Positions 34,099 through 56,421 of a stretch of 64,000 nt of DNA are shown piece after piece. The translations under genes were made by a program, and so were the position numbers. Positions within the stretch are counted from its first letter, which is position 1. Each line of letters begins with the position of its first letter. This stretch comes from Solirubrobacterales bacterium (lineage in GTDB: Bacteria; Actinomycetota; Thermoleophilia; Solirubrobacterales; 70-9). Where the stretch lies: NCBI GenBank assembly GCA_035693065.1, contig DASSHE010000015.1:18814-82813 (forward strand), read 5' to 3'. The notes under the pieces were generated by a model. It was given only the letters and a program-made list of their open reading frames with translations, was not told the origin of the DNA and did no database searches.

Positions 34099-34530
34099 CT
34101 AGCGGCCGCTGGAGCCGAAGCCGCCCTCGCCGCGGGCCGAGTCGCTCAGCGCCCCGGACTCGACCGGGTCGGCGAGCGAGATCGGCGACAGGACCAGTTG
34201 GGCGATGCGGTCGCCCGGCTCGACCCGGAAGGTCTCAGCGGGGTCCGTGTTCAGCAACAGCACCCGGACTTCGCCGCGGTAGCCGGAGTCGATCAGGCCC
34301 GGGGCGTTGACGAGCGAGATCCCGTGCTCGCGGGCGATCCCGGAGCGCGGCAGGACCAGCCCGGCGTGTCCGGCCGGGATCTCTAGGGCAACTCCGGTGC
34401 CGACGCTCCAGCGCTCTCCCGGCCCGATGTGGGCGGACTCGCAGGCGTAGAGATCGAGCCCGGCATCGCCCTCGTGCGCCCGCGAAGGCAGCACCGCCTC
34501 GTCTTTCAGCTTGAGAACCGGAAGCTCCAC
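34099..34530 (-). CDS. dut: dUTP diphosphatase
   Basis: C-terminal part of listed ORF 34099..35946, GTG at 34530. Motifs: AGLDLYA, LPRSG, GLIDSGYRGEV, RIAQLV, GGFGSSG. Confidence 0.85.
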   Translation of the reverse strand: MELPVLKLKDEAVLPSRAHEGDAGLDLYACESAHIGPGERWSVGTGVALEIPAGHAGLVLPRSGIAREHGISLVNAPGLIDSGYRGEVRVLLLNTDPAETFRVEPGDRIAQLVLSPISLADPVESGALSDSARGEGGFGSSGR

Positions 34531-34550
34531 GCGCGGCAGCCTATCGGGGC

Positions 34551-35882
34551 TCAGGCAACGGCGAGATCGCTGAAGCGGTGGAGCTCGGCCGAGGGCACCC
34601 GGGCGTGGACGAGGACGCCGTCCTCGCGCTCGGTCCGCTCGAGGTCGCCCGCCACCTCGTGCAGCTCGTGCAGGCGGGCGCCCTGGCTGTAGGGGATCAG
34701 CAGCTCGACCTCGGTCAGGGTCTCCTCGAAGGCCGCCTCGATCCGCTCCCGCAGCCCGTCCAGGCCCTCCCCCTCGAGGGCGGAGACCAGCACCGCCTCC
34801 GGGTGGTCGAGCTCGACTTCGCGCCGTGCCTCCTCGCTCAGCAGGTCGGCCTTGTTGAAGACCAGCAGGCGCGGCTTCTCGCCGGCGCCGATCCCCTCGA
34901 GGACCTCGTCGACCGCCCGAATGTCCCCCTCCCGCCGCTGCTCGGAGGCGGAGGCGTCGACCACGTGCAGGATCAGGTCGGCGAGGACGGTCTCTTCGAG
35001 CGTGGCCTTGAAGGCCTCGACTAGCTGATGCGGCAGCTTCTCGATGAAGCCGACGGTGTCGGTCAGCAGGTAGTCGCGCCCGGAGAGCTCGAAGGTGCGG
35101 GTGGTTGGGTCGAGGGTGTGGAAGAGGCGGTCGCGGACCTCGACCTCGGCCCCGGTGAGGGCGTTCAGCAGGGTCGACTTGCCGGCGTTGGTGTAGCCGG
35201 CGAGGGCGACCCGCGGCAGCGAGGAGCTCTCGCGCCGGGCCCGCATGACGCCGCGGTTGCGCTCGAGGTCGGTGAGTCGGCGCCGCAGCGCCGCGATCCG
35301 GTTGCGGGCGAGGCGGCGGTCGGTCTCGATCTGGCTCTCGCCGGGGCCCCTGGTGCCGATGCCGCCGTCCATACGGCCGGCGCCGAGGCGCTCGAGGTGG
35401 GTCCAGAGCCCCCGCATGCGGGCCATGTTGTATTCGAGCTGGGCCAGCTCGACCTGGAGCTTGCCCTCGGCCGAGTGGGCGTGGTCGGCGAAGATGTCGA
35501 GGATGATCGCGGTGCGGTCGATCACCGGCACCCCCAGCGCGCTCTCCAGGTTGCGCTCCTGCCGCGGCGCGAGTTCGTCGTCGCAGGCGACCAGGTTTGC
35601 CCCGGCCGCGGCGATTTCCTCTTTCAGCTCGACCAGGCGGCCGCGGCCGAAGTAGCGATCGGGGTCGGCCTGCGGCCGCTGCTGGGTCGCTTCGCCGGCG
35701 GTCGCGACCCCCGCCGTGCGCAGCAGCTCCTTCAGCTCGGCCAGCGGGTCGCCCTCCTCGCGGCCGCTGATCACCGCGATCGCCATCGCCCGCTGCCGGG
35801 CGCGCGGGTTCGAGACGCCGGCACCGTTGGCGGACGCCGCGAGGCGGGTCTCTGCCTTCCTGCCGTTTCTCGAAGTTTGCAC
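34551..35882 (-). CDS. hflX: GTPase HflX
   Basis: G1 is LAGYTNAGKST, G3 is DTVGF and G4 is NKAD. An HflX N-terminal domain is present. Confidence 0.9.
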   Translation of the reverse strand: MQTSRNGRKAETRLAASANGAGVSNPRARQRAMAIAVISGREEGDPLAELKELLRTAGVATAGEATQQRPQADPDRYFGRGRLVELKEEIAAAGANLVACDDELAPRQERNLESALGVPVIDRTAIILDIFADHAHSAEGKLQVELAQLEYNMARMRGLWTHLERLGAGRMDGGIGTRGPGESQIETDRRLARNRIAALRRRLTDLERNRGVMRARRESSSLPRVALAGYTNAGKSTLLNALTGAEVEVRDRLFHTLDPTTRTFELSGRDYLLTDTVGFIEKLPHQLVEAFKATLEETVLADLILHVVDASASEQRREGDIRAVDEVLEGIGAGEKPRLLVFNKADLLSEEARREVELDHPEAVLVSALEGEGLDGLRERIEAAFEETLTEVELLIPYSQGARLHELHEVAGDLERTEREDGVLVHARVPSAELHRFSDLAVA

Positions 35883-35961
35883 TCAGGCAAATTGTATGGG
35901 TTGGCCCGGGCCGACCAGATGACTGGCTACGCGGCCAGGCAATCATCTAGGGTTTGGGATC

Positions 35962-36957
35962 GTGAAGGTTTTCGTCACGGGAGGCACGGGTTTCATCGGC
36001 GGCGAGGTCGTGCGCCAGTTGCGCGCCCGGGGCGACGAGGTCGTCTGCCTCGTCCGCAACCCCGAGAAGGGCGCCGCCCTGGCCGCGCTCGGCTGCCAGT
36101 CGGTCAGCGGCGAGCTCGGCAATGAAGTGGCCATCCGAACCGGAATGGAGGGCTGCGACGCGGTGATCCACGCCGCCGCCGTCTACGAGGTCGGAATTCC
36201 AGCTTCGCAGCGGCCGGCGATGCGTGATGCCAACGTTGGCGGCACCGAACGCGTCCTCGGCGCGGCGCTGGCGCTGGGGATCCCCAAGGTCGTCTACGTC
36301 TCCACCGTCGGCGTCTTCGGCAACACCAACGGCCAGGTCGTCGACGAGTCCTACGAGCACCCCGCCCAGAGCTTCACCTCCGCCTACGAGGAAACGAAGT
36401 GGGAGGCACACCAGGTGGCGAAGCGGCTGATCGGCGAAGGCCTGCCCTGCGTGATCGTCCAGCCCGGGGGCGTCTACGGCCCCGGCGATACCTCCTCGAT
36501 CGGCCAACTGCTGGATCAGTTCCTCGCCGGCAAGATGCCGCTGATGCCGTTCCCCGAGCTCGGCATCTGCCTCACCCACGTCGAGGACATCGGCGGCGGG
36601 ATCCTCCTCGCCCTCGACCGAGGGAGGACCGGCGAGGCCTACGTGATCAGCGGCCCGGCGACGACGATGCGGGAGGCGATCGGGGTCGTCGCCAGCCTCA
36701 CCGACCGCAAGCCGCCGCGCGGCGCGATCCCAACCCCGCTGATGAAGGCGATGATCCCGATCGGGCCGCTGGTCGGCAAGGTGATGGGTCAGCCGCCGAA
36801 CCTCCGCGAGCTGATCTCCTCCGCTGACGGCGTCACCTTCTGGGCCAGCTACGAGAAGGCGAAGAACGAGCTCGGCTACGAGCCCAGGGGACTCGAGGAC
36901 GGCTTCCGCGCCTACCTCGCCGCCGAAGGCCAGCTCCCAGGCGCCACGCCCGATTAG
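35962..36957 (+). CDS. NAD-dependent epimerase/dehydratase (extended SDR)
   Basis: VFVTGGTGFIGGEVV Rossmann motif and YEETK (YxxxK). Confidence 0.8.
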   Translation: MKVFVTGGTGFIGGEVVRQLRARGDEVVCLVRNPEKGAALAALGCQSVSGELGNEVAIRTGMEGCDAVIHAAAVYEVGIPASQRPAMRDANVGGTERVLGAALALGIPKVVYVSTVGVFGNTNGQVVDESYEHPAQSFTSAYEETKWEAHQVAKRLIGEGLPCVIVQPGGVYGPGDTSSIGQLLDQFLAGKMPLMPFPELGICLTHVEDIGGGILLALDRGRTGEAYVISGPATTMREAIGVVASLTDRKPPRGAIPTPLMKAMIPIGPLVGKVMGQPPNLRELISSADGVTFWASYEKAKNELGYEPRGLEDGFRAYLAAEGQLPGATPD

Positions 36958-36979
36958 CCCCACCACATAAGCTGCCCGC

Positions 36980-37810
36980 GTGCGCGTAATCGACGTCGAG
37001 CATCTCGGCCGCCCCCACGTGATCGGCTGCTGGGAGGTGGACGGGGTCCTTGTCGACCCCGGTCCCGAGTCCTCCCTCCCCACCCTGCTGGAGGCGATCA
37101 GCGACGAGCAGCCGCGGGCGCTGCTGCTCACCCACATCCACCTCGACCACGCCGCCGCGACCGGGGCGATGGTCGAGCGCTGGCCCGACCTCGAGGTCTA
37201 CGTCCACGAGCGCGGCGCTCCGCACCTGGTCGACCCCTCGAAGCTGCTGGCCAGCGCCGAGCGCCTCTACGGCGACCAGATGGAGTACCTCTGGGGCAAG
37301 ATCAAGCCGGTCCCCGAGGCCAACGTCCACGTCCTCACCGGCGAGGAGACCGTGCTGGGGATGCGCGTCGCCTACACCCCCGGCCACGCCTCCCACCACG
37401 TCTGTTACCTGCACGAGGCGAGCGGCACCGCCTTCGTCGGCGACGTCGCCGCGGTGCGGATCCCCCCGACCGACCTGGTCGTGCCCCCGACGCCGCCGCC
37501 CGACATCGACATCGAGCTCTGGGAAAGGTCGCTGGCGACCGTCGAGGCCTGGCAGCCGCAGCGGCTGGCCCTCACCCACTTCGGCGCCGTCGAGGACCCC
37601 GCCGAGCACCTCGACGCGGTCCGCACCCGCCTGCGCCAGGAGGCCGAAGCGGCGCGGGAGCTCGACGCCGAGGCCTACGAAGCCGACCTGAGGCAGCGGA
37701 TCGAAGCCGAGATCGAGGACCGCGAGGTGCTCGAGGAGCTGCTGCAGGCGGTCCCCCTCGCCTACCAGTACGGCGGCCTCGAGCGCTACTGGAGCAAGCG
37801 CCCGGGCTAG
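36980..37810 (+). CDS. MBL-fold metallo-hydrolase
   Basis: THIHLDH (HxHxDH) and TPGHASHH. Confidence 0.8.
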   Translation: MRVIDVEHLGRPHVIGCWEVDGVLVDPGPESSLPTLLEAISDEQPRALLLTHIHLDHAAATGAMVERWPDLEVYVHERGAPHLVDPSKLLASAERLYGDQMEYLWGKIKPVPEANVHVLTGEETVLGMRVAYTPGHASHHVCYLHEASGTAFVGDVAAVRIPPTDLVVPPTPPPDIDIELWERSLATVEAWQPQRLALTHFGAVEDPAEHLDAVRTRLRQEAEAARELDAEAYEADLRQRIEAEIEDREVLEELLQAVPLAYQYGGLERYWSKRPG

Positions 37811-37825
37811 GGCGGGCGCCCGACG

Positions 37826-38995
37826 CTAGCTGAGGTGCTCGCGCATCCGCTCGACGGCCTCTTCGATGCGCTCGTCGGGCGTGGTCAGGGAGATGCGGAA
37901 GAAGCCCTCGCCGCTGGGCCCGTACATCGAGCCCGGTGAGATCACCACGGCGGCCTCCTCGAGCACGAGCTCGCAGAACGAGGTCGAGGTGTGGCTCTCG
38001 GGGACGGGGGCCCAGACGTAGATCGTCCCCTTCGGGGCGTTGACCTCGACCCCGATCTCGCGTAGCGCCGAGACGACCAGGTCGCGGCGGCGGGCGTAGG
38101 TTTGGTTCATGCGCTCCAGCGGCCCGGAGGGGCCCTGCAGGGCGGCGACGCCGGCCATCTGCACGGCCTCGAAAAGACCCGAGTCGACGTTGGTCTTGAG
38201 CCGCCAGTAGGTCTGGATCGCCTCGGCGTTGCCGAGGATCGCGGCGCAGCGCCAGCCGGTCATGTTGTAGCCCTTGGAGAGCGAGAAGACCTCGACCCCG
38301 ACCTCCTTGGCCCCGGGTGTGGCGAGGAAGCTGGGCGCGACGTAGCCGTCGTAGGTGGTCTCCGAGTAGGCGTTGTCGTGGACGACGAGGATCTCGTACT
38401 CGCGGGCAAAGGAGACGACGGTGTCGAAGAACCCCTCGGGGACGACTGCCCCGGTCGGGTTGTTGGGGTAGTTGAGGAACATCAACCGCGCCTGCTCCGC
38501 CACCTCGCCCGGGATCGCGGCGAGGTCTGGGACGAAGCCCAGCTCGGGGACCAGCGGCAGCACCTCGGCCCGGGCGCCGGCGAGGATCGGGCCGCCGGTG
38601 TAGACCGGGTAGCCGGGGTCGGAGGCGAGGGCGACGTCGCCGGGATCGAGGAAGGCGAAGCAGAGGTTGTAGATGCACTCCTTGGCGCCGATCGCCGGGA
38701 TCACCTCGCCGGCAGGGTCGATCTCGACCCCGAAGCGGCGGTCGTAGAAATCGGCGCAGGCCTGGCGGAACTCCTCGCGCCCGCGGTTGCTCGGGTACTG
38801 GTGATTGGCCGGGTCGGCAACCGCCTCCTGCATCGCCTTGACAACGTGCGGGTAGGTCGGTTCGTCCGGATCGCCGATTCCGAGGCTGATCACGTCGATG
38901 CCGGCGGCCCGCTTGTCGGCGATCTGCTGCTCGAGTTCCTGGAACTTGTACGGCGGGATGGCCTCGAGGCGCTTGGAGGGGTCGGCGATGCCCAT
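37826..38995 (-). CDS. class I/II PLP-dependent aminotransferase (LL-diaminopimelate aminotransferase-like)
   Basis: NYPNNPTGAV and SLSKGYNMTGWR (PLP lysine) are present, adjacent to the dapF homolog. Substrate assignment is inference. Confidence 0.7.
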   Translation of the reverse strand: MGIADPSKRLEAIPPYKFQELEQQIADKRAAGIDVISLGIGDPDEPTYPHVVKAMQEAVADPANHQYPSNRGREEFRQACADFYDRRFGVEIDPAGEVIPAIGAKECIYNLCFAFLDPGDVALASDPGYPVYTGGPILAGARAEVLPLVPELGFVPDLAAIPGEVAEQARLMFLNYPNNPTGAVVPEGFFDTVVSFAREYEILVVHDNAYSETTYDGYVAPSFLATPGAKEVGVEVFSLSKGYNMTGWRCAAILGNAEAIQTYWRLKTNVDSGLFEAVQMAGVAALQGPSGPLERMNQTYARRRDLVVSALREIGVEVNAPKGTIYVWAPVPESHTSTSFCELVLEEAAVVISPGSMYGPSGEGFFRISLTTPDERIEEAVERMREHLS

Positions 38996-39024: not shown

Positions 39025-39876
39025 TTACTCGCCGTCCAGCTCGGCCAGCGCCTGCAGCAGCTCGGGCGAGAGCTCCCCGGCGAAGACCGGCTCGGCCCAA
39101 CCGTCGAGCCGAACCGCGAGGTCGTCGCCGATCTCGACCTGCAGCTCGCCGCCTTCGAGCTCGACGACCAGCGGGCTGGGAGCGCCGCGGAGGAAGGCGG
39201 TGACGGCGGCCCCGCTGGCGCCGGTTCCCGAAGAGAGCGTCTCCCCCACCCCGCGCTCGAAGATCCGCGCCCGCACCCGGTCGCCGTCGACCGCGAGGAA
39301 GGAGACGTTGGTCCGGTTGGGGAAAAGCTCGTGGCCTTCGATCCCGGGCCCGATCTCACCGAGGTCGAGCTCGTCGAGCTCGGTGGCGTCGACGAGGATC
39401 GCGCACTGCGGGTTGCCGATCGAGACGTGCTGGAACTCCCAGGTCCGACCGGCGGACTCGAGCGTGCCCCTCCCGTCCTCACCGCCGGAGGGGAAGTCCT
39501 TGGAGGTGGTCGCGGCCCGGCCCATGTCGACCGAGCAGGTCAGCTCGCCGGTGATCGTCGGCCGGATCGGCCCGGCGACCGTCTTGATCGCGAACTCGTC
39601 CTCCTCCGTCCAGCCGTGCCGGCGCAGGTAGAGGATCGCCTCCCGCGCCCCGTTCCCGGACAGCTCGGCCTCGGAGCCGTCGGGGTTGAAGATCCGCAGC
39701 TCGGCGACGAACTCCGGCTCGTCGCTACGCGAGAGCAGCAGGATCCCGTCGGCGCCGACGCCGAAGTGCTGGTCGCAGAGCCACTCGACCCGCGCCTCGG
39801 TCAGCTCCCAGGGCAACCGCTCCTGCTCGAGGATCAGGTAGTCGTTGCCGAGCGCTTGCCACTTCTCGAATTTCAC
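39025..39876 (-). CDS. dapF: diaminopimelate epimerase homolog with Ser at both catalytic Cys positions
   Basis: GTG at 39876. WQALGNDY, IFNPDGSEAELSGNGAR and ERGVGETLSSGTGA align to DapF FNADGSE..CGNGAR and ERGAGET.ACGSGA. Codons at 39658-39660 (TCC) and 39229-39231 (TCG) encode Ser where Cys is expected. Confidence 0.75.
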   Translation of the reverse strand: MKFEKWQALGNDYLILEQERLPWELTEARVEWLCDQHFGVGADGILLLSRSDEPEFVAELRIFNPDGSEAELSGNGAREAILYLRRHGWTEEDEFAIKTVAGPIRPTITGELTCSVDMGRAATTSKDFPSGGEDGRGTLESAGRTWEFQHVSIGNPQCAILVDATELDELDLGEIGPGIEGHELFPNRTNVSFLAVDGDRVRARIFERGVGETLSSGTGASGAAVTAFLRGAPSPLVVELEGGELQVEIGDDLAVRLDGWAEPVFAGELSPELLQALAELDGE

Positions 39877-39910: not shown

Positions 39911-41143
39911 CTATTGAACGACCCAGATCGGGCTCGGTTGGAGCAGATTGAAATTTCCCTGGAATTCGGCGGTCGTGTGTGAGTCGCAGGTAGTGGTTTC
40001 GCCTGGCGCACCGGCTTCCCGGGACAGAACGGCTGGCCCCATGCTCATCGAGCCTGACGCCCCGCTGGTGATGGGAGCTCGTACCGGCCCCGAGAAATCG
40101 CAGACCAAGGGCCAGGAATTACAGGTGACTCGCAGCCTGCTGGCGCCAAAACGGTACACCCCATTGGCGCCACCCCCGTAGATACGACCATTCCACCAAT
40201 TCACGGCGCCGACGGTACAGGCGTTGGTCCCGACGGTGCAGGTGCCGAAAATGAAATTCTGGATGACGGAGGAAAGACCTGGATTCCCCCAGCGATGCAG
40301 GGTGACGGACTTGAAAACTGCATTGGCACAGCCGACGGTCATGCTCCAGGCGCCATTATTTGACTCTCCGTTCACCTTGACCGTGGCGTTGGTCGACTTC
40401 CCTTCTATCAGGGTGCTCGCCGCGTACTGGTTAGCGAGCACGCACGGAGATTCGTTCAGCTTGCAGAGCATCGTCGATCGCCCGACGCCGACGCCGACTT
40501 TTTCCGCGCCCACCGTGCCTTTGGTCAGCATTTGGCCATTGAGATAGGCAGTAGTCGCACCTACGCCAAAGAAGGGACATGCGAATCCGTCGACATTTTT
40601 CGTAGCGGCAACGGGGGAGCTAACGAACCTGATGTTGAAAGGAGTCGGTTCCGCTTCGATGGAATTCTGGTAGGTGATCCCATTGATCCCAGTCTGACTC
40701 CCGATCGTGGCGACACAGAGGCCGCCCCCGGCATTGAGACTTATTTTGCTGCTCGATTCGCAGGCGACGTCTGCCGTTCCTCGGTATTCGCCTTCTTCGC
40801 TTTTCGCCACTTCTTCCCCCGCGTGGAAGACGAAGTTGCAGCCGGTGGTGGTCACATTTGCGCCGACAAAGCCAAAGGCGGTGCAGCCTGAGAAAGTCGG
40901 ATGGAGGGTGACCTGTTCAGAGGCTTCGGGGAGCGTGCCGTTGAAATTCACATTCGAGCATTCGAACCCACTGCCGTCGATCGTCCCAACCATCCTCGTT
41001 CCCGGCGCCTGTTCCGCGGTGAAAGTGGTGCTTCCTTCCGCGGTGGAGAGAAACTTCGAGGCGGCGGCAGATGGGGCGAATGCGAGCAGGAGCACCGAGC
41101 CAACCAGGACCGACGCGCTCCAACTACCCCAACTTCGCTTCAT
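39911..41143 (-). CDS. secreted Cys-rich beta-type hypothetical protein in a lower-GC island
   Basis: Signal peptide is SASVLVGSVLLLAFAPSAAAS. Many Cys residues occur in recurring contexts (GFECSNVNFNG, SGCTAFGF, TTGCNFVF, VGCANAVF, GTCTVGTNACTV). GC is visibly lower than in the flanks. Confidence 0.7.
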   Translation of the reverse strand: MKRSWGSWSASVLVGSVLLLAFAPSAAASKFLSTAEGSTTFTAEQAPGTRMVGTIDGSGFECSNVNFNGTLPEASEQVTLHPTFSGCTAFGFVGANVTTTGCNFVFHAGEEVAKSEEGEYRGTADVACESSSKISLNAGGGLCVATIGSQTGINGITYQNSIEAEPTPFNIRFVSSPVAATKNVDGFACPFFGVGATTAYLNGQMLTKGTVGAEKVGVGVGRSTMLCKLNESPCVLANQYAASTLIEGKSTNATVKVNGESNNGAWSMTVGCANAVFKSVTLHRWGNPGLSSVIQNFIFGTCTVGTNACTVGAVNWWNGRIYGGGANGVYRFGASRLRVTCNSWPLVCDFSGPVRAPITSGASGSMSMGPAVLSREAGAPGETTTCDSHTTAEFQGNFNLLQPSPIWVVQ

Positions 41144-41278: not shown

Positions 41279-42004
41279 TTAGCACTGCCCGAGCAGTTCA
41301 CCGGCGACCGCGGCGTCATTCAGCGAAGTTCGATCTACCCAGCGGAGGCCGGGGATTTTCCTCATCCAGGTGAGTTGTCGGCGCGCATAGTTTCGCGAGC
41401 GCTTCTTCATCGCATCGACGTCGCCGGCTAGGAGCTCGTCGAAGCCGAGGGCTTTGCGGGCGGTGCGGCCGGGGCCGAGGGCGTCGGCGCGGCGGGCCTC
41501 CTCGGCGGCGCCCGCGGCCACTATCGCCTCGGTGCGGGCGTCGATCCGCTCGTAGAGCTGGGCTCTGTCCATGTCGAGGCCGAAGATCGTCGTCGGGTGG
41601 CGGGTCTCGGGCGACCAGAGCTCTGAGTCCTCCGAGTCCGGCGGCACTTTCCGCAAGGAGAGGTCGGCGAGCGCGGCGCGCAGGTACAAGCCCGTCCCTC
41701 CCACGACGATCGGCCGCCGCCCCGCCGCCAGGGCAGCGTCGATCTCGGCGTGGGCAAGGGGCATGTAGTCGCCGATCGAGAAGTCGGAGGTGATCGGGAC
41801 GAAGCTGAGCAGGCGGTGCTCGAGCCGGGCCTGCTCCTCGGCCGTGGCGGCTCCCGTCAGCGTCTCCAGTCCCTCGTAGACCTGGAGGGCATCGCAGTTA
41901 ACCGCCACCGGGTCCTCGCCCCGCTCACGCAGCAGCTTGGCCAGCGCGATCGCCACCCCGGTCTTCCCGACCCCCGTCGGACCGAAGATCGCGACGACGT
42001 TCAA
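41279..42004 (-). CDS. miaA: tRNA dimethylallyltransferase
   Basis: C-terminal part of listed ORF 41279..43303, TTG at 42004. Motifs: IFGPTGVGKT, DALQVYEGL, VGGTGLYL, YARRQLTW. Confidence 0.85.
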   Translation of the reverse strand: MNVVAIFGPTGVGKTGVAIALAKLLRERGEDPVAVNCDALQVYEGLETLTGAATAEEQARLEHRLLSFVPITSDFSIGDYMPLAHAEIDAALAAGRRPIVVGGTGLYLRAALADLSLRKVPPDSEDSELWSPETRHPTTIFGLDMDRAQLYERIDARTEAIVAAGAAEEARRADALGPGRTARKALGFDELLAGDVDAMKKRSRNYARRQLTWMRKIPGLRWVDRTSLNDAAVAGELLGQC

Positions 42005-42009
42005 AGCCC

Positions 42010-43335
42010 TTAGAGGAGCGGCGTCAGCGGACGCGCCGCGACGCCGCTCAGCGTCTGCGAGGTCGCCGCTTCGATCTCGACCGGGACGAACTCGCCGGCC
42101 GCGGCGACGCCGTCGAAGTTGACCGCCTTGCCGTGGCGGGTGCGTCCCCGCAGCTTCGTCTCGTCGGTGCGGCTGGTGCCTTCGACGAGGACGTCCAGAG
42201 TCCGCCCGACAAAGCGCTGAGCCTGCTCGGCGGCGCGCCGCTGGACCACCTCGACCAGCCGTTCCATCCGCTCGACCTTGACCGGGTGCGGCAACTGCCC
42301 GTCCATCGCCGCCGCCGCCGTTTCGCGCCGCGGCGAGAAGACGAAGGTGAAGGCGCCGTCGTAGCCGACCTCCTCGACCACCTCGAGGGTCTCGCGGAAG
42401 TCGTCCTCGGTCTCGCCGGGGAAGCCGACGATGATGTCGGTCGTGATCGCGCAGTCGGGGACGTGCTCGCGGATCAGGGCGACCCGGTCCATGTAGCGGC
42501 CGCGGTCGTAGGTGCGGCGCATCCGTTTCAGCACCGCGCTCGAGCCCGACTGCAGCGGCAGGTGGATCTGCTCGCAGAGCGCCGGCAGCTCGGCGTGGGC
42601 GCGGATCACGTCCTCCTTCATGTCCTTCGGGTGGGGGCTGGTGTAGCGGATCCGCTTGATCCCCGCGACCGCGTCGACGCGGCGCAGCAGCTCGGAGAAG
42701 CCGATCCGGCGGTCGGCCGGCAGGTCGCGCCCGTAGCTGTTGACGTTCTGGCCCAGCAAGGTCACCTCGACGACGCCGTCGGCCGCCAGCGCCTCGGCCT
42801 CGGTGACGAGCTCGAAGGGGTCGCGGCTGACCTCGCGGCCGCGGGTCGAAGGCACGATGCAGTAGGAGCAGACGCAGTTGCAGCCCTGGGAGATCTGCAG
42901 CCAGCCCTGGAACTCGCGCTCGCGCCGCGTCGGCAGGTGGCCGGAGAAATCCTCGAACTCGAAGTAGCCCTGCGCGGTGAGGGAGTCGGAGTTGAGGAAC
43001 TCCGCCAGCTTGTGGATCTGCCCGGGACCGAAGGCGACGTCGACGAAGGGGAAGCGCTCGAAGACCTCCTCCTTGACCGACTGCGCCCAGCAGCCGCCGA
43101 CGCCGACCACCCGCTCGGGGTCTTCGCTCTTCAGCTTCTTCGCCTGCCCGAGATGGGCGATGAAGCGGCTGTCGGCGGACTCGCGAATCGAGCAGGTGTT
43201 GAAGAGGATCAGGTCCGCTTCCTCCCGCTCGCCGGCCTCCTCGTAGCCGAGCGAGGACAGCATCCCCCGCATCCGCTCGGAGTCGTGCACGTTCATCTGA
43301 CACCCGAAGGTGGTGACGTGGAACAGCTTGGCCAT
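42010..43335 (-). CDS. miaB: tRNA-2-methylthio-N6-dimethylallyladenosine synthase (radical SAM methylthiotransferase)
   Basis: FGCQMN N-terminal domain, radical-SAM CNCVCSYC motif and a TRAM-like C-terminus. Confidence 0.9.
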   Translation of the reverse strand: MAKLFHVTTFGCQMNVHDSERMRGMLSSLGYEEAGEREEADLILFNTCSIRESADSRFIAHLGQAKKLKSEDPERVVGVGGCWAQSVKEEVFERFPFVDVAFGPGQIHKLAEFLNSDSLTAQGYFEFEDFSGHLPTRREREFQGWLQISQGCNCVCSYCIVPSTRGREVSRDPFELVTEAEALAADGVVEVTLLGQNVNSYGRDLPADRRIGFSELLRRVDAVAGIKRIRYTSPHPKDMKEDVIRAHAELPALCEQIHLPLQSGSSAVLKRMRRTYDRGRYMDRVALIREHVPDCAITTDIIVGFPGETEDDFRETLEVVEEVGYDGAFTFVFSPRRETAAAAMDGQLPHPVKVERMERLVEVVQRRAAEQAQRFVGRTLDVLVEGTSRTDETKLRGRTRHGKAVNFDGVAAAGEFVPVEIEAATSQTLSGVAARPLTPLL

Positions 43336-54846: not shown

Positions 54847-55740
54847 TTAGCTGGGGACCGCGACGCCGGCGGCATCGAGTCCCGCCCTGATGGCGGCTCG
54901 TTGCTCGGCGTCGGCGGATACCAGGGGAAGTCTCAGTCGGTCCGCGCAAAGGCCGAGCATCTCCAGGGCGGCCTTCAAGGGAATCGGGTTGGTGGTGACG
55001 GCCAGGGCCTTGTAGACCGGCTGCAGCTTGGCGTCGATCTCGCGGGCGCGATCGAGGTCGGCCGCCTGGGCGGCCTCCCACATCTCGCGCATGCCGTCGC
55101 CGACCACGTGGGAGGCAACGAGAACGCCACCGGCACCGCCGAATTCAAGCGTGCGCAGGTACGTCTCGTTGTCGCCGGCGAGGACGTCCAAGCCATCGAT
55201 CGGCCCCAGTTCATCGGGGTTGGCCTGCTTGACGGCAACGATGTTGTCGATCTCGCCGAGCTCGCGCAGCAGCTCGGGGTCGGCGTTGACGATCACTCGC
55301 GAGGGGATGTTGTACATCACCATCGGCAGCTCCGGCTCGGCTGCGGCGACGGCTTCGAAGTGGGCCTTGATCCCCGCCCGGTTGGGCTTGTTGTAGTACG
55401 GGACGACGACCAGCGACGCGTCGGCTCCGGCCTCGGCGGCCATCTTGGTCAGCTCGCAGGAATGGCGGGTGTCGTTGGTCCCGGTGCCGCAGATCAGCAA
55501 GGCGCTCTCCCCCGCCTCCTTGCGCACCGCTTCCAGCAGCTCGATCTCCTCGCCGTCGGTCAGGGTCGGGCACTCACCGGTGGTCCCGGCGATCACCAGT
55601 CCATGCGAGCCGTGTTCGAGCAGATACGCGGCAAGCCGCCGCGCCCCGTCGAGGTCGACCGCCCCGCTCTCGCCGAACGGGGTCGCCATGGCCGTCAGCA
55701 CGCCCTTGATCTCCTTCATTGCTCCAGGGTATCCCGTCAT
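54847..55740 (-). CDS. dapA: 4-hydroxy-tetrahydrodipicolinate synthase
   Basis: TAMATPF, GTTGE, YNIPSR and VAVKQA motifs are present. The start may be the internal MKEIKG. Confidence 0.9.
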   Translation of the reverse strand: MTGYPGAMKEIKGVLTAMATPFGESGAVDLDGARRLAAYLLEHGSHGLVIAGTTGECPTLTDGEEIELLEAVRKEAGESALLICGTGTNDTRHSCELTKMAAEAGADASLVVVPYYNKPNRAGIKAHFEAVAAAEPELPMVMYNIPSRVIVNADPELLRELGEIDNIVAVKQANPDELGPIDGLDVLAGDNETYLRTLEFGGAGGVLVASHVVGDGMREMWEAAQAADLDRAREIDAKLQPVYKALAVTTNPIPLKAALEMLGLCADRLRLPLVSADAEQRAAIRAGLDAAGVAVPS

Positions 55741-55755: not shown

Positions 55756-56421
55756 CTAAAGCAGCTTCTCGAGGCCGACGGTGAAGCGATCGGGCAGATC
55801 TGCCACGCGGCGGCAGGCCAGGACCACGCCGGGCATGAAGGAGTGGCGGTCGATCGAGTCGTGGCGGATCGAGAGGGTCTGGCCGACGCCGCCGAAGATC
55901 ACTTCCTGATGGGCGACGAGGCCGGGCAGGCGGACCGAGTGGATCGGCTGGTGGACGTTGCCCCCAGCGGCGTCGATCAGCTCCTGGGTCCGCTTCGCCG
56001 TCCCCGAGGGGGCGTCGAGCTTGCGGTCGTGGTGGAGCTCGACGATCTCGCACTCGGGCATGTGCCTGGCGATCGTCTGCGAGACCTCCATCAGCAGCAC
56101 CGCCCCGATCGCGAAGTTGGGCGCGACGAAGCAGTTCGCCCGCGAGGCCTCGGCCGCCGCGCGGGCGGCCTCGAGATCGAAGCCGGTGGTGCCGACCACG
56201 GCGTGGACGCCGGCGGCGAGGCAGGCTTCGACGTTCGCCAGGGCCGTGTCGGGAACGGTGAAGTCGACGACCACGTCGGCCCCGGGCAGCACCTCGGCGA
56301 GCTCCACCCCGAGGGCGGGGTCGGCCCGGCCGGTCAGCTCCAGGCCCTCGGCCCCCTCGACCGCCTCGCAGACGGCCTGCCCCATTTTCCCGGCGGCGCC
56401 GGCGACGGCGACGCGGGTCAT
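55756..56421 (-). CDS. dapB: 4-hydroxy-tetrahydrodipicolinate reductase
   Basis: ATG at 56421 (ATGA overlap with the upstream stop). VAVAGAAGKMG, VVGTTGF, ELHHDRKLDAPSGTA. Confidence 0.85.
   Translation of the reverse strand: MTRVAVAGAAGKMGQAVCEAVEGAEGLELTGRADPALGVELAEVLPGADVVVDFTVPDTALANVEACLAAGVHAVVGTTGFDLEAARAAAEASRANCFVAPNFAIGAVLLMEVSQTIARHMPECEIVELHHDRKLDAPSGTAKRTQELIDAAGGNVHQPIHSVRLPGLVAHQEVIFGGVGQTLSIRHDSIDRHSFMPGVVLACRRVADLPDRFTVGLEKLL

Follow-up and report, generated by a model that had tools for sequence, protein, structure and literature searches.

A diaminopimelate epimerase gene with serine at both catalytic positions

The 64,000-nucleotide stretch of Solirubrobacterales DNA analysed here (the window) carries an open reading frame for a homologue of diaminopimelate epimerase, DapF, among genes of the diaminopimelate (DAP) pathway. 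DapF is the textbook two-thiol, cofactor-independent epimerase, an enzyme of lysine and cell-wall synthesis and a target for antibiotics; the homologue encoded here has serine where both thiols are expected. The features of the locus are as follows.

39025..39876, minus strand: dapF, 283 aa, a Ser/Ser diaminopimelate epimerase with a GTG start (PF01678, TIGR00652, AlphaFold2 model, Foldseek)
39658..39660, minus strand: TCC codon of Ser73, at the position of catalytic Cys73 in E. coli and H. influenzae numbering (ORF codons, phmmer, AlphaFold2)
39229..39231, minus strand: TCG codon of Ser216, at the position of catalytic Cys217 (ORF codons, phmmer, AlphaFold2)
39406-39408, within dapF: codon of Gln157 in the motif GNPQC (H157Q; ORF codons)
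37826..38995, minus strand: dapL, LL-diaminopimelate aminotransferase, 29 bp downstream of dapF (NF006756, 544 bits, cut-off 507; TIGR03540, 522 bits; Aminotran_1_2)
39911-41143, minus strand: Cys-rich secreted ORF of 410 aa between miaA and dapF, with a signal-peptide-like N-terminus and no Pfam match
41279..42220, minus strand, start approximate: miaA, IPP transferase (PF01715)
42010..43335, minus strand: miaB (UPF0004, radical SAM and TRAM domain matches)
36980-37810, plus strand: metallo-beta-lactamase-fold protein, between dapL and hflX-dut
35962-36957, plus strand: NAD-dependent epimerase/dehydratase, between dapL and hflX-dut
34551..35882, minus strand: hflX GTPase (TIGR03156, 425.7 bits; match at window positions 34734-35759, equivalent to G000:C15:53547-54572)
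54880..55704, minus strand: dapA (TIGR00674, 255 bits; C15:73693-74517)
55762..56280, minus strand: dapB, matched part of the gene (TIGR00036, 181.7 bits summed; C15:74575-75093)

Assignment of the dapF product to its family is supported by both profile and sequence searches. Pfam finds two DAP_epimerase domains (PF01678, 138.3 bits) in two stretches, and the NCBIfam equivalog TIGR00652 covers residues 1–269 with 191.6 bits, against a curated cut-off of 114.65 bits. A phmmer search of PDB chains matched the product over its full length to the solved DapFs 9mro (8.9e-46), 5ha4 and 3ejx; in these alignments ‘elSGNGar’ faces ‘emCGNGir’ and ‘tlsSGTGA’ faces ‘tlaCGTGA’. The catalytic Cys/Cys pair is absent from the window DapF, which has Ser73 and Ser216 at these sites, the latter directly preceded by Ser215 (TCT). 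A preliminary description, made from the nucleotide sequence, had already reported a DapF homologue with Ser73 (TCC) and Ser216 (TCG) at the two catalytic cysteine positions, and both the phmmer alignment and the codon positions agree with it. Sequence searches of the PDB with the window DapF, and with one member of a multi-phylum Ser/Ser group described below, returned no native Ser/Ser chain, only Cys/Cys enzymes and C73S/C217S mutants.

The serine pair is fixed throughout the Solirubrobacterales

All of the approximately 85 Solirubrobacterales orthologues checked carry serine at both sites, so that the Ser/Ser state, whose breadth the preliminary description had left to be established, proves to be order-wide among them. 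It occurs in 30 of 30 orthologues (61–90 % identity), drawn from 24 genomes that represent the same genus and other families of the order, in four orthologues from four further genera, and in some 50 named records of Solirubrobacterales, which include those of the cultured isolates Patulibacter americanus DSM 16676 and Patulibacter sp. NPDC049589. In a collection of 5.8 billion proteins, the best 120 relatives are Ser/Ser without exception (120/120); wherever the source supplies a name it is diaminopimelate epimerase, and NCBI entries among the 120 are labelled Solirubrobacterales or Actinomycetota. Across the order the two serines are encoded by TCC, TCG, TCA, TCT, AGC and AGT. Because codons of both the TCN and the AGY family are used at both sites, selection appears to act on the amino acid, and the pattern indicates long-standing selection for serine itself at each position.

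Within one genus of the order (g4) we also noted a second, divergent DapF-like paralogue (L182, G032:C1:250625-251420; L183, G027:C3) of a type absent from the window’s genome. It is about 31–38 % identical over the aligned parts and is Cys/Cys (‘EMCGNGAR’, ‘LGCATGA’), with GAPH replacing GNPH, because of which it may act on a different substrate.

Predicted fold and active site

An AlphaFold2 model of the window DapF, computed from an alignment of 35 sequences (mean pLDDT 95.9, pTM 0.92), has the pseudo-symmetric two-domain fold typical of DapF, with a catalytic position at the N-terminus of each central helix: Ser73 immediately precedes helix 74–86 and Ser216 precedes helix 217–229, so that the two residues are predicted to cap the two central helices. 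The top Foldseek matches in the PDB are DapF crystal structures (8qzy, 9mro at TM 0.89, 4ijz and 5ha4; TM 0.82–0.89), followed by O-ureidoserine racemase and then by PhzF and hydroxyproline epimerases.

In the Anabaena DapF, helices 2 and 4 each carry a catalytic cysteine at the N-terminus, and the substrate is contacted by Asn13, Gly76, Asn77, Gly225 and Thr226 (PMC12039745). The counterparts of these contacts, N11, G74, N75, G217 and T218, vary little or not at all across all the Ser/Ser clades sampled, and the same is true of N64, N155, N190, E207 and R208; the DAP-binding set, in H. influenzae numbering, was taken as N11, N64, G74, N75, N157, N190, E208, R209, G218 and S/T219. An alignment of the sampled clades revealed no auxiliary substitution that recurs in every Ser/Ser clade, apart from the catalytic pair itself and the residues next to it. 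Judged from these comparisons, the active site appears to differ from that of thiol DapFs only in the two acid/base atoms.

Three residues were considered as possible aids to catalysis. Tyr13, a candidate for activating a serine, never varies in the Ser/Ser clades of Thermoleophilia, but 53 % of Cys/Cys enzymes have Tyr13 too. Two cysteines were rejected as substitute catalytic thiols: Cys34 is conserved to the same degree in Cys/Cys DapFs, and one Ser/Ser family (f9, below) has alanine in place of Cys158; the enzyme therefore appears to lack a substitute thiol.

A change peculiar to the order affects the GNPH motif, whose histidine is replaced by glutamine in 92 % of Solirubrobacterales sequences (Gln157 in the window) and shows 100 % conservation in each of the other clades sampled, Ser/Ser or Cys/Cys. 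Further Solirubrobacterales-specific changes near the pocket are Glu192 to Ser (E192S) and Trp206 to Phe (W206F). Because the catalytic sulfurs have no basic residue within 4 Å (PMC12039745), the GNPH histidine may not be directly catalytic.

Pathway and gene neighbourhood

On the minus strand the genes run in the order recA, miaB, miaA, the 410-aa Cys-rich ORF, dapF and dapL; hflX follows about 2 kb beyond dapL, past two opposite-strand genes, the hflX-dut region lying within window positions 34099-37810. The conserved miaA–dapF–hflX neighbourhood first ascribed to the locus is thus present in looser form: miaA and hflX are indeed nearby, but the 410-aa ORF separates miaA from dapF, and dapL and two plus-strand genes come before hflX. 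The adjoining gene that had been called DAP-aminotransferase-like is dapL itself, as judged by its NF006756 score.

The window dapF is the sole PF01678 gene of its genome (G000), a metagenome-assembled genome (MAG) of 2.88 Mb and 96.6 % completeness, and the second, canonical dapF for which the preliminary description had allowed was not found in it. The same genome encodes lysA (439 bits), a murE with the DNPR motif and, elsewhere, one PhzF-family gene; neither ddh (meso-DAP dehydrogenase) nor a proline-racemase family gene was found there. With dapL, dapA, dapB, lysA and a DNPR-type murE present and ddh not found, the organism is therefore expected to need meso-DAP and to have no other known route to it: by gene content, the window dapF is the only recognisable epimerase in a genome predicted to make LL-DAP and to need meso-DAP. 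That a gene was missed, or that a non-homologous epimerase exists, is formally possible in a MAG that is 96.6 % complete.

The chemistry of cultured relatives is in keeping with such a need. All members of the Solirubrobacterales are stated to have meso-DAP as their diagnostic wall amino acid (PMC3035278), and it has been found in Solirubrobacter (PMC10722151). The isolate genome of Patulibacter americanus, too, has the Ser/Ser gene as its single PF01678 gene and contains lysA, and ddh was not found in it.

Ser/Ser enzymes in other lineages

We sorted Thermoleophilia orthologues, under NCBI-style names, by family (f1–f13). Families f1–f6, which belong to the window’s order, are Ser/Ser, as are f9 (9/9) and f13; families f7, f8, f10 and f12 are Cys/Cys. 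Family f11 is likewise Cys/Cys except for genus g34, in which five of six genomes encode a Ser/Cys hybrid, ‘SGNG’ being combined with ‘ACGSGA’ or ‘ACGTGA’. These hybrids (L037, L039, L047, L049 and L054, from genomes G077, G083, G056, G095 and G071) are the only DapF homologues of their five genomes and form one supported clade (SH-aLRT 98–99), the homologue of the sixth genome (L043) being Cys/Cys. One further protein of the Ser/Cys type, P0247, branches apart from this clade.

A second, large Ser/Ser group came to light when 1.84 billion representative proteins were searched; it is marked by the motifs ‘AEKSGNGLRIF’ and ‘YTLASGSSSCA’, and its named members belong to Methylomirabilota, SAR324, Nitrospirota, Acidobacteriota, Aquificota (Sulfurihydrogenibium), Bacteroidales, Polyangiaceae and Planctomycetota (Sedimentisphaerales). 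Four genomes of this multi-phylum clade, from four phyla, have no PF01678 gene other than the Ser/Ser one; each has a lysA or lysA-like gene, and ddh was not found in any of the four. In the Bacteroidales MAG the Ser/Ser dapF adjoins lysA, 46 bp apart on the same strand (G158:C249:10022-12058); in the Polyangiaceae MAG it is accompanied, at a distance of about 1.4 kb and again on the same strand, by a lysA-like gene that scores below the cut-off (255 bits; G160:C3:188280-191705). Compared with the window DapF, to which they are 36–42 % identical, the multi-phylum enzymes share the serine pair and the single-copy setting but occupy a separate branch, keep the GNPH histidine that is glutamine in the window and have SGSS where the window has SGTG.

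On the maximum-likelihood tree, 4–5 changes are needed to account for the Ser/Ser state. Approximately unbiased (AU) tests on 56 rows (LG+G4, catalytic columns masked) rejected a constraint that placed all Ser/Ser rows in one clade (p-AU 0.003) and did not reject one that placed the three Thermoleophilia Ser/Ser groups together (p-AU 0.295). Because a single Ser/Ser clade is rejected, the switch from cysteine to serine would have occurred at least twice overall; a single Ser/Ser origin within Thermoleophilia is possible. Taken as phylogeny, the distribution suggests several independent Ser/Ser lineages, the window’s locus adding evidence for more than one such switch.

Comparison with known DapFs

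Natural DapFs that use two catalytic serines in the same fold were reported by Lamer et al. (2025, J Mol Biol 437:169375, PMID 40774471), as cited in PMC13728532; through that citing paper, this is the only report of a natural Ser/Ser DapF that we found. By the same account, replacement of serine by cysteine inactivates the Ser/Ser DapF of Anabaena sp. YBS01. The kind of enzyme has thus been known since 2025 and the catalytic cysteine pair no longer defines the family; as cited, the published enzymes mean that thiols are not obligatory. The window DapF is a further member, like them in having the DapF fold and serine at both catalytic positions, a likeness that is by the description given in the citing paper. 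In Anabaena sp. YBS01, as described there, the Ser/Ser enzyme is a second DapF beside a Cys/Cys DapF, whereas in the window genome and the Solirubrobacterales it is the only copy, and the Solirubrobacterales differ from the class as described in having glutamine for the GNPH histidine. Three things set the window gene apart: the sole copy, the possibly independent lineage and the missing GNPH histidine. A tblastn search of PLSDB for the Anabaena Ser/Ser copy gave ordinary dapF genes in the best 40 of 96 records, none of them cyanobacterial.

Canonical Cys/Cys DapFs (EC 5.1.1.7; 9mro, 5ha4, 3ejx, 4ijz, 1gqz) resemble the window enzyme in length, two-domain fold, placement of the catalytic positions at helix N-termini, all DAP-binding residues, pathway and gene neighbourhood; they differ in having two catalytic thiols where it has two hydroxyls. 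Serine has also been placed in the DapF fold by design, in the H. influenzae C73S and C217S mutants (2q9h, 2q9j), both of which are among the Foldseek matches of the window DapF. These are single changes in a site tuned for thiols, whereas in the window DapF both serines appear fixed under selection. The preliminary description held that single Cys-to-Ser mutants are strongly impaired; such mutants of thiol enzymes are, as a general statement, slowed and have been used for slower catalysis (PMC11602996), but this is not an argument that holds for natural enzymes of the Ser/Ser type, such as those cited in PMC13728532.

Proposed function and alternatives

We consider it probable, at about 0.85, that the window gene encodes the organism’s working LL- to meso-DAP epimerase, with serines as its acid/base pair; its activity and its alkoxide/hydroxyl two-base chemistry we infer from the active Ser/Ser DapFs published, as cited in PMC13728532. 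DapL, encoded next door, would supply LL-DAP. Within an ordinary DapF fold and DAP pocket, the hydroxyls of Ser73 and Ser216 would form the acid/base pair, each serine sitting at the N-terminus of a central helix aimed at the substrate α-carbon, and the epimerase would deliver meso-DAP to LysA for lysine and to MurE for peptidoglycan.

The preliminary description had offered a low-activity or mechanistically altered epimerase, a paralogue with a new function and a pseudo-enzyme as options; the single DapF, the retained DAP pocket, the order-wide serine pair and the meso-DAP walls favour a working, mechanistically altered epimerase over the other two. A DapF-fold enzyme turned to another substrate or chemistry, for example a one-way conversion or a dehydration of the kind known from Cys/Thr members of related racemase families, with an unrecognised enzyme making meso-DAP, has some precedent, since a Cys-to-Thr change in a related cofactor-independent racemase, Ecl-DER, alters the outcome of the reaction (PMC8142540), and the order-specific changes near the pocket (H157Q, E192S and W206F) and the PhzF-family protein elsewhere in the genome could be read in the same way. 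We nevertheless regard it as unlikely: every DAP-binding residue is kept, the gene is the genome’s sole DapF homologue and adjoins dapL (with lysA adjoining in one other Ser/Ser genome), neither ddh nor a proline-racemase family gene was found in the genome, and the published Ser/Ser DapFs are described, in the paper that cites them, as DAP epimerases (PMC13728532).

It is more doubtful still that the protein is catalytically dead and retained for a non-catalytic role, for instance as a partner protein. E. coli DapF does moonlight as an activator of RppH (PMC13728532), and serine is, on paper, a poor base; but a scaffold would not need invariant substrate-binding residues and an invariant serine pair across 35–90 % identity, and its adoption would leave the pathway without an epimerase despite lysA and meso-DAP walls. 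An artefact of sequencing or assembly, or a gene in decay, has nothing in its favour except that the genome is a metagenome-assembled draft, and its probability is negligible: the frame is intact, the scores exceed curated cut-offs, and the same two serines recur in all Solirubrobacterales orthologues checked, from independent assemblies and isolates, with synonymous codons varying. The ortholog survey leads us to reject both sequencing error, against which the preliminary description had already argued, and a pseudogene.

Possible evolution and consequences of the serine pair

The working serine-based epimerase can be placed in a wider account, which we put forward tentatively and at somewhat less than even odds. 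The Thermoleophilia Ser/Ser DapFs would represent an origin of serine catalysis independent of the multi-phylum clade, and possibly of the enzymes reported in 2025; their sole copy would carry the entire lysine and cell-wall flux; the Solirubrobacterales would manage this without the GNPH histidine; and the Ser/Cys hybrids would mark a stepwise path from thiol to hydroxyl. If this account is true, these lineages offer a natural series in which to trace the retuning of a DapF active site from thiol to hydroxyl chemistry.

The locus adds genomic evidence that an entire order, one of abundant soil actinobacteria with cultured members whose walls contain meso-DAP, can have a Ser/Ser enzyme as its sole DapF. 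Annotation rules that assume catalytic cysteines would fail for Ser/Ser lineages, and inhibitors with aziridine or other thiol-reactive warheads would not suit them.

As for what the serine pair might confer, crystals of the P. aeruginosa and C. glutamicum DapFs contain an inactivating Cys73–Cys217 disulfide (PMC13728532), which the window DapF would be unable to form because both thiols are hydroxyls. As disulfide formation inactivates thiol DapFs, we speculate that the advantage of a Ser/Ser enzyme could lie in immunity to this switch-off under oxidative stress.
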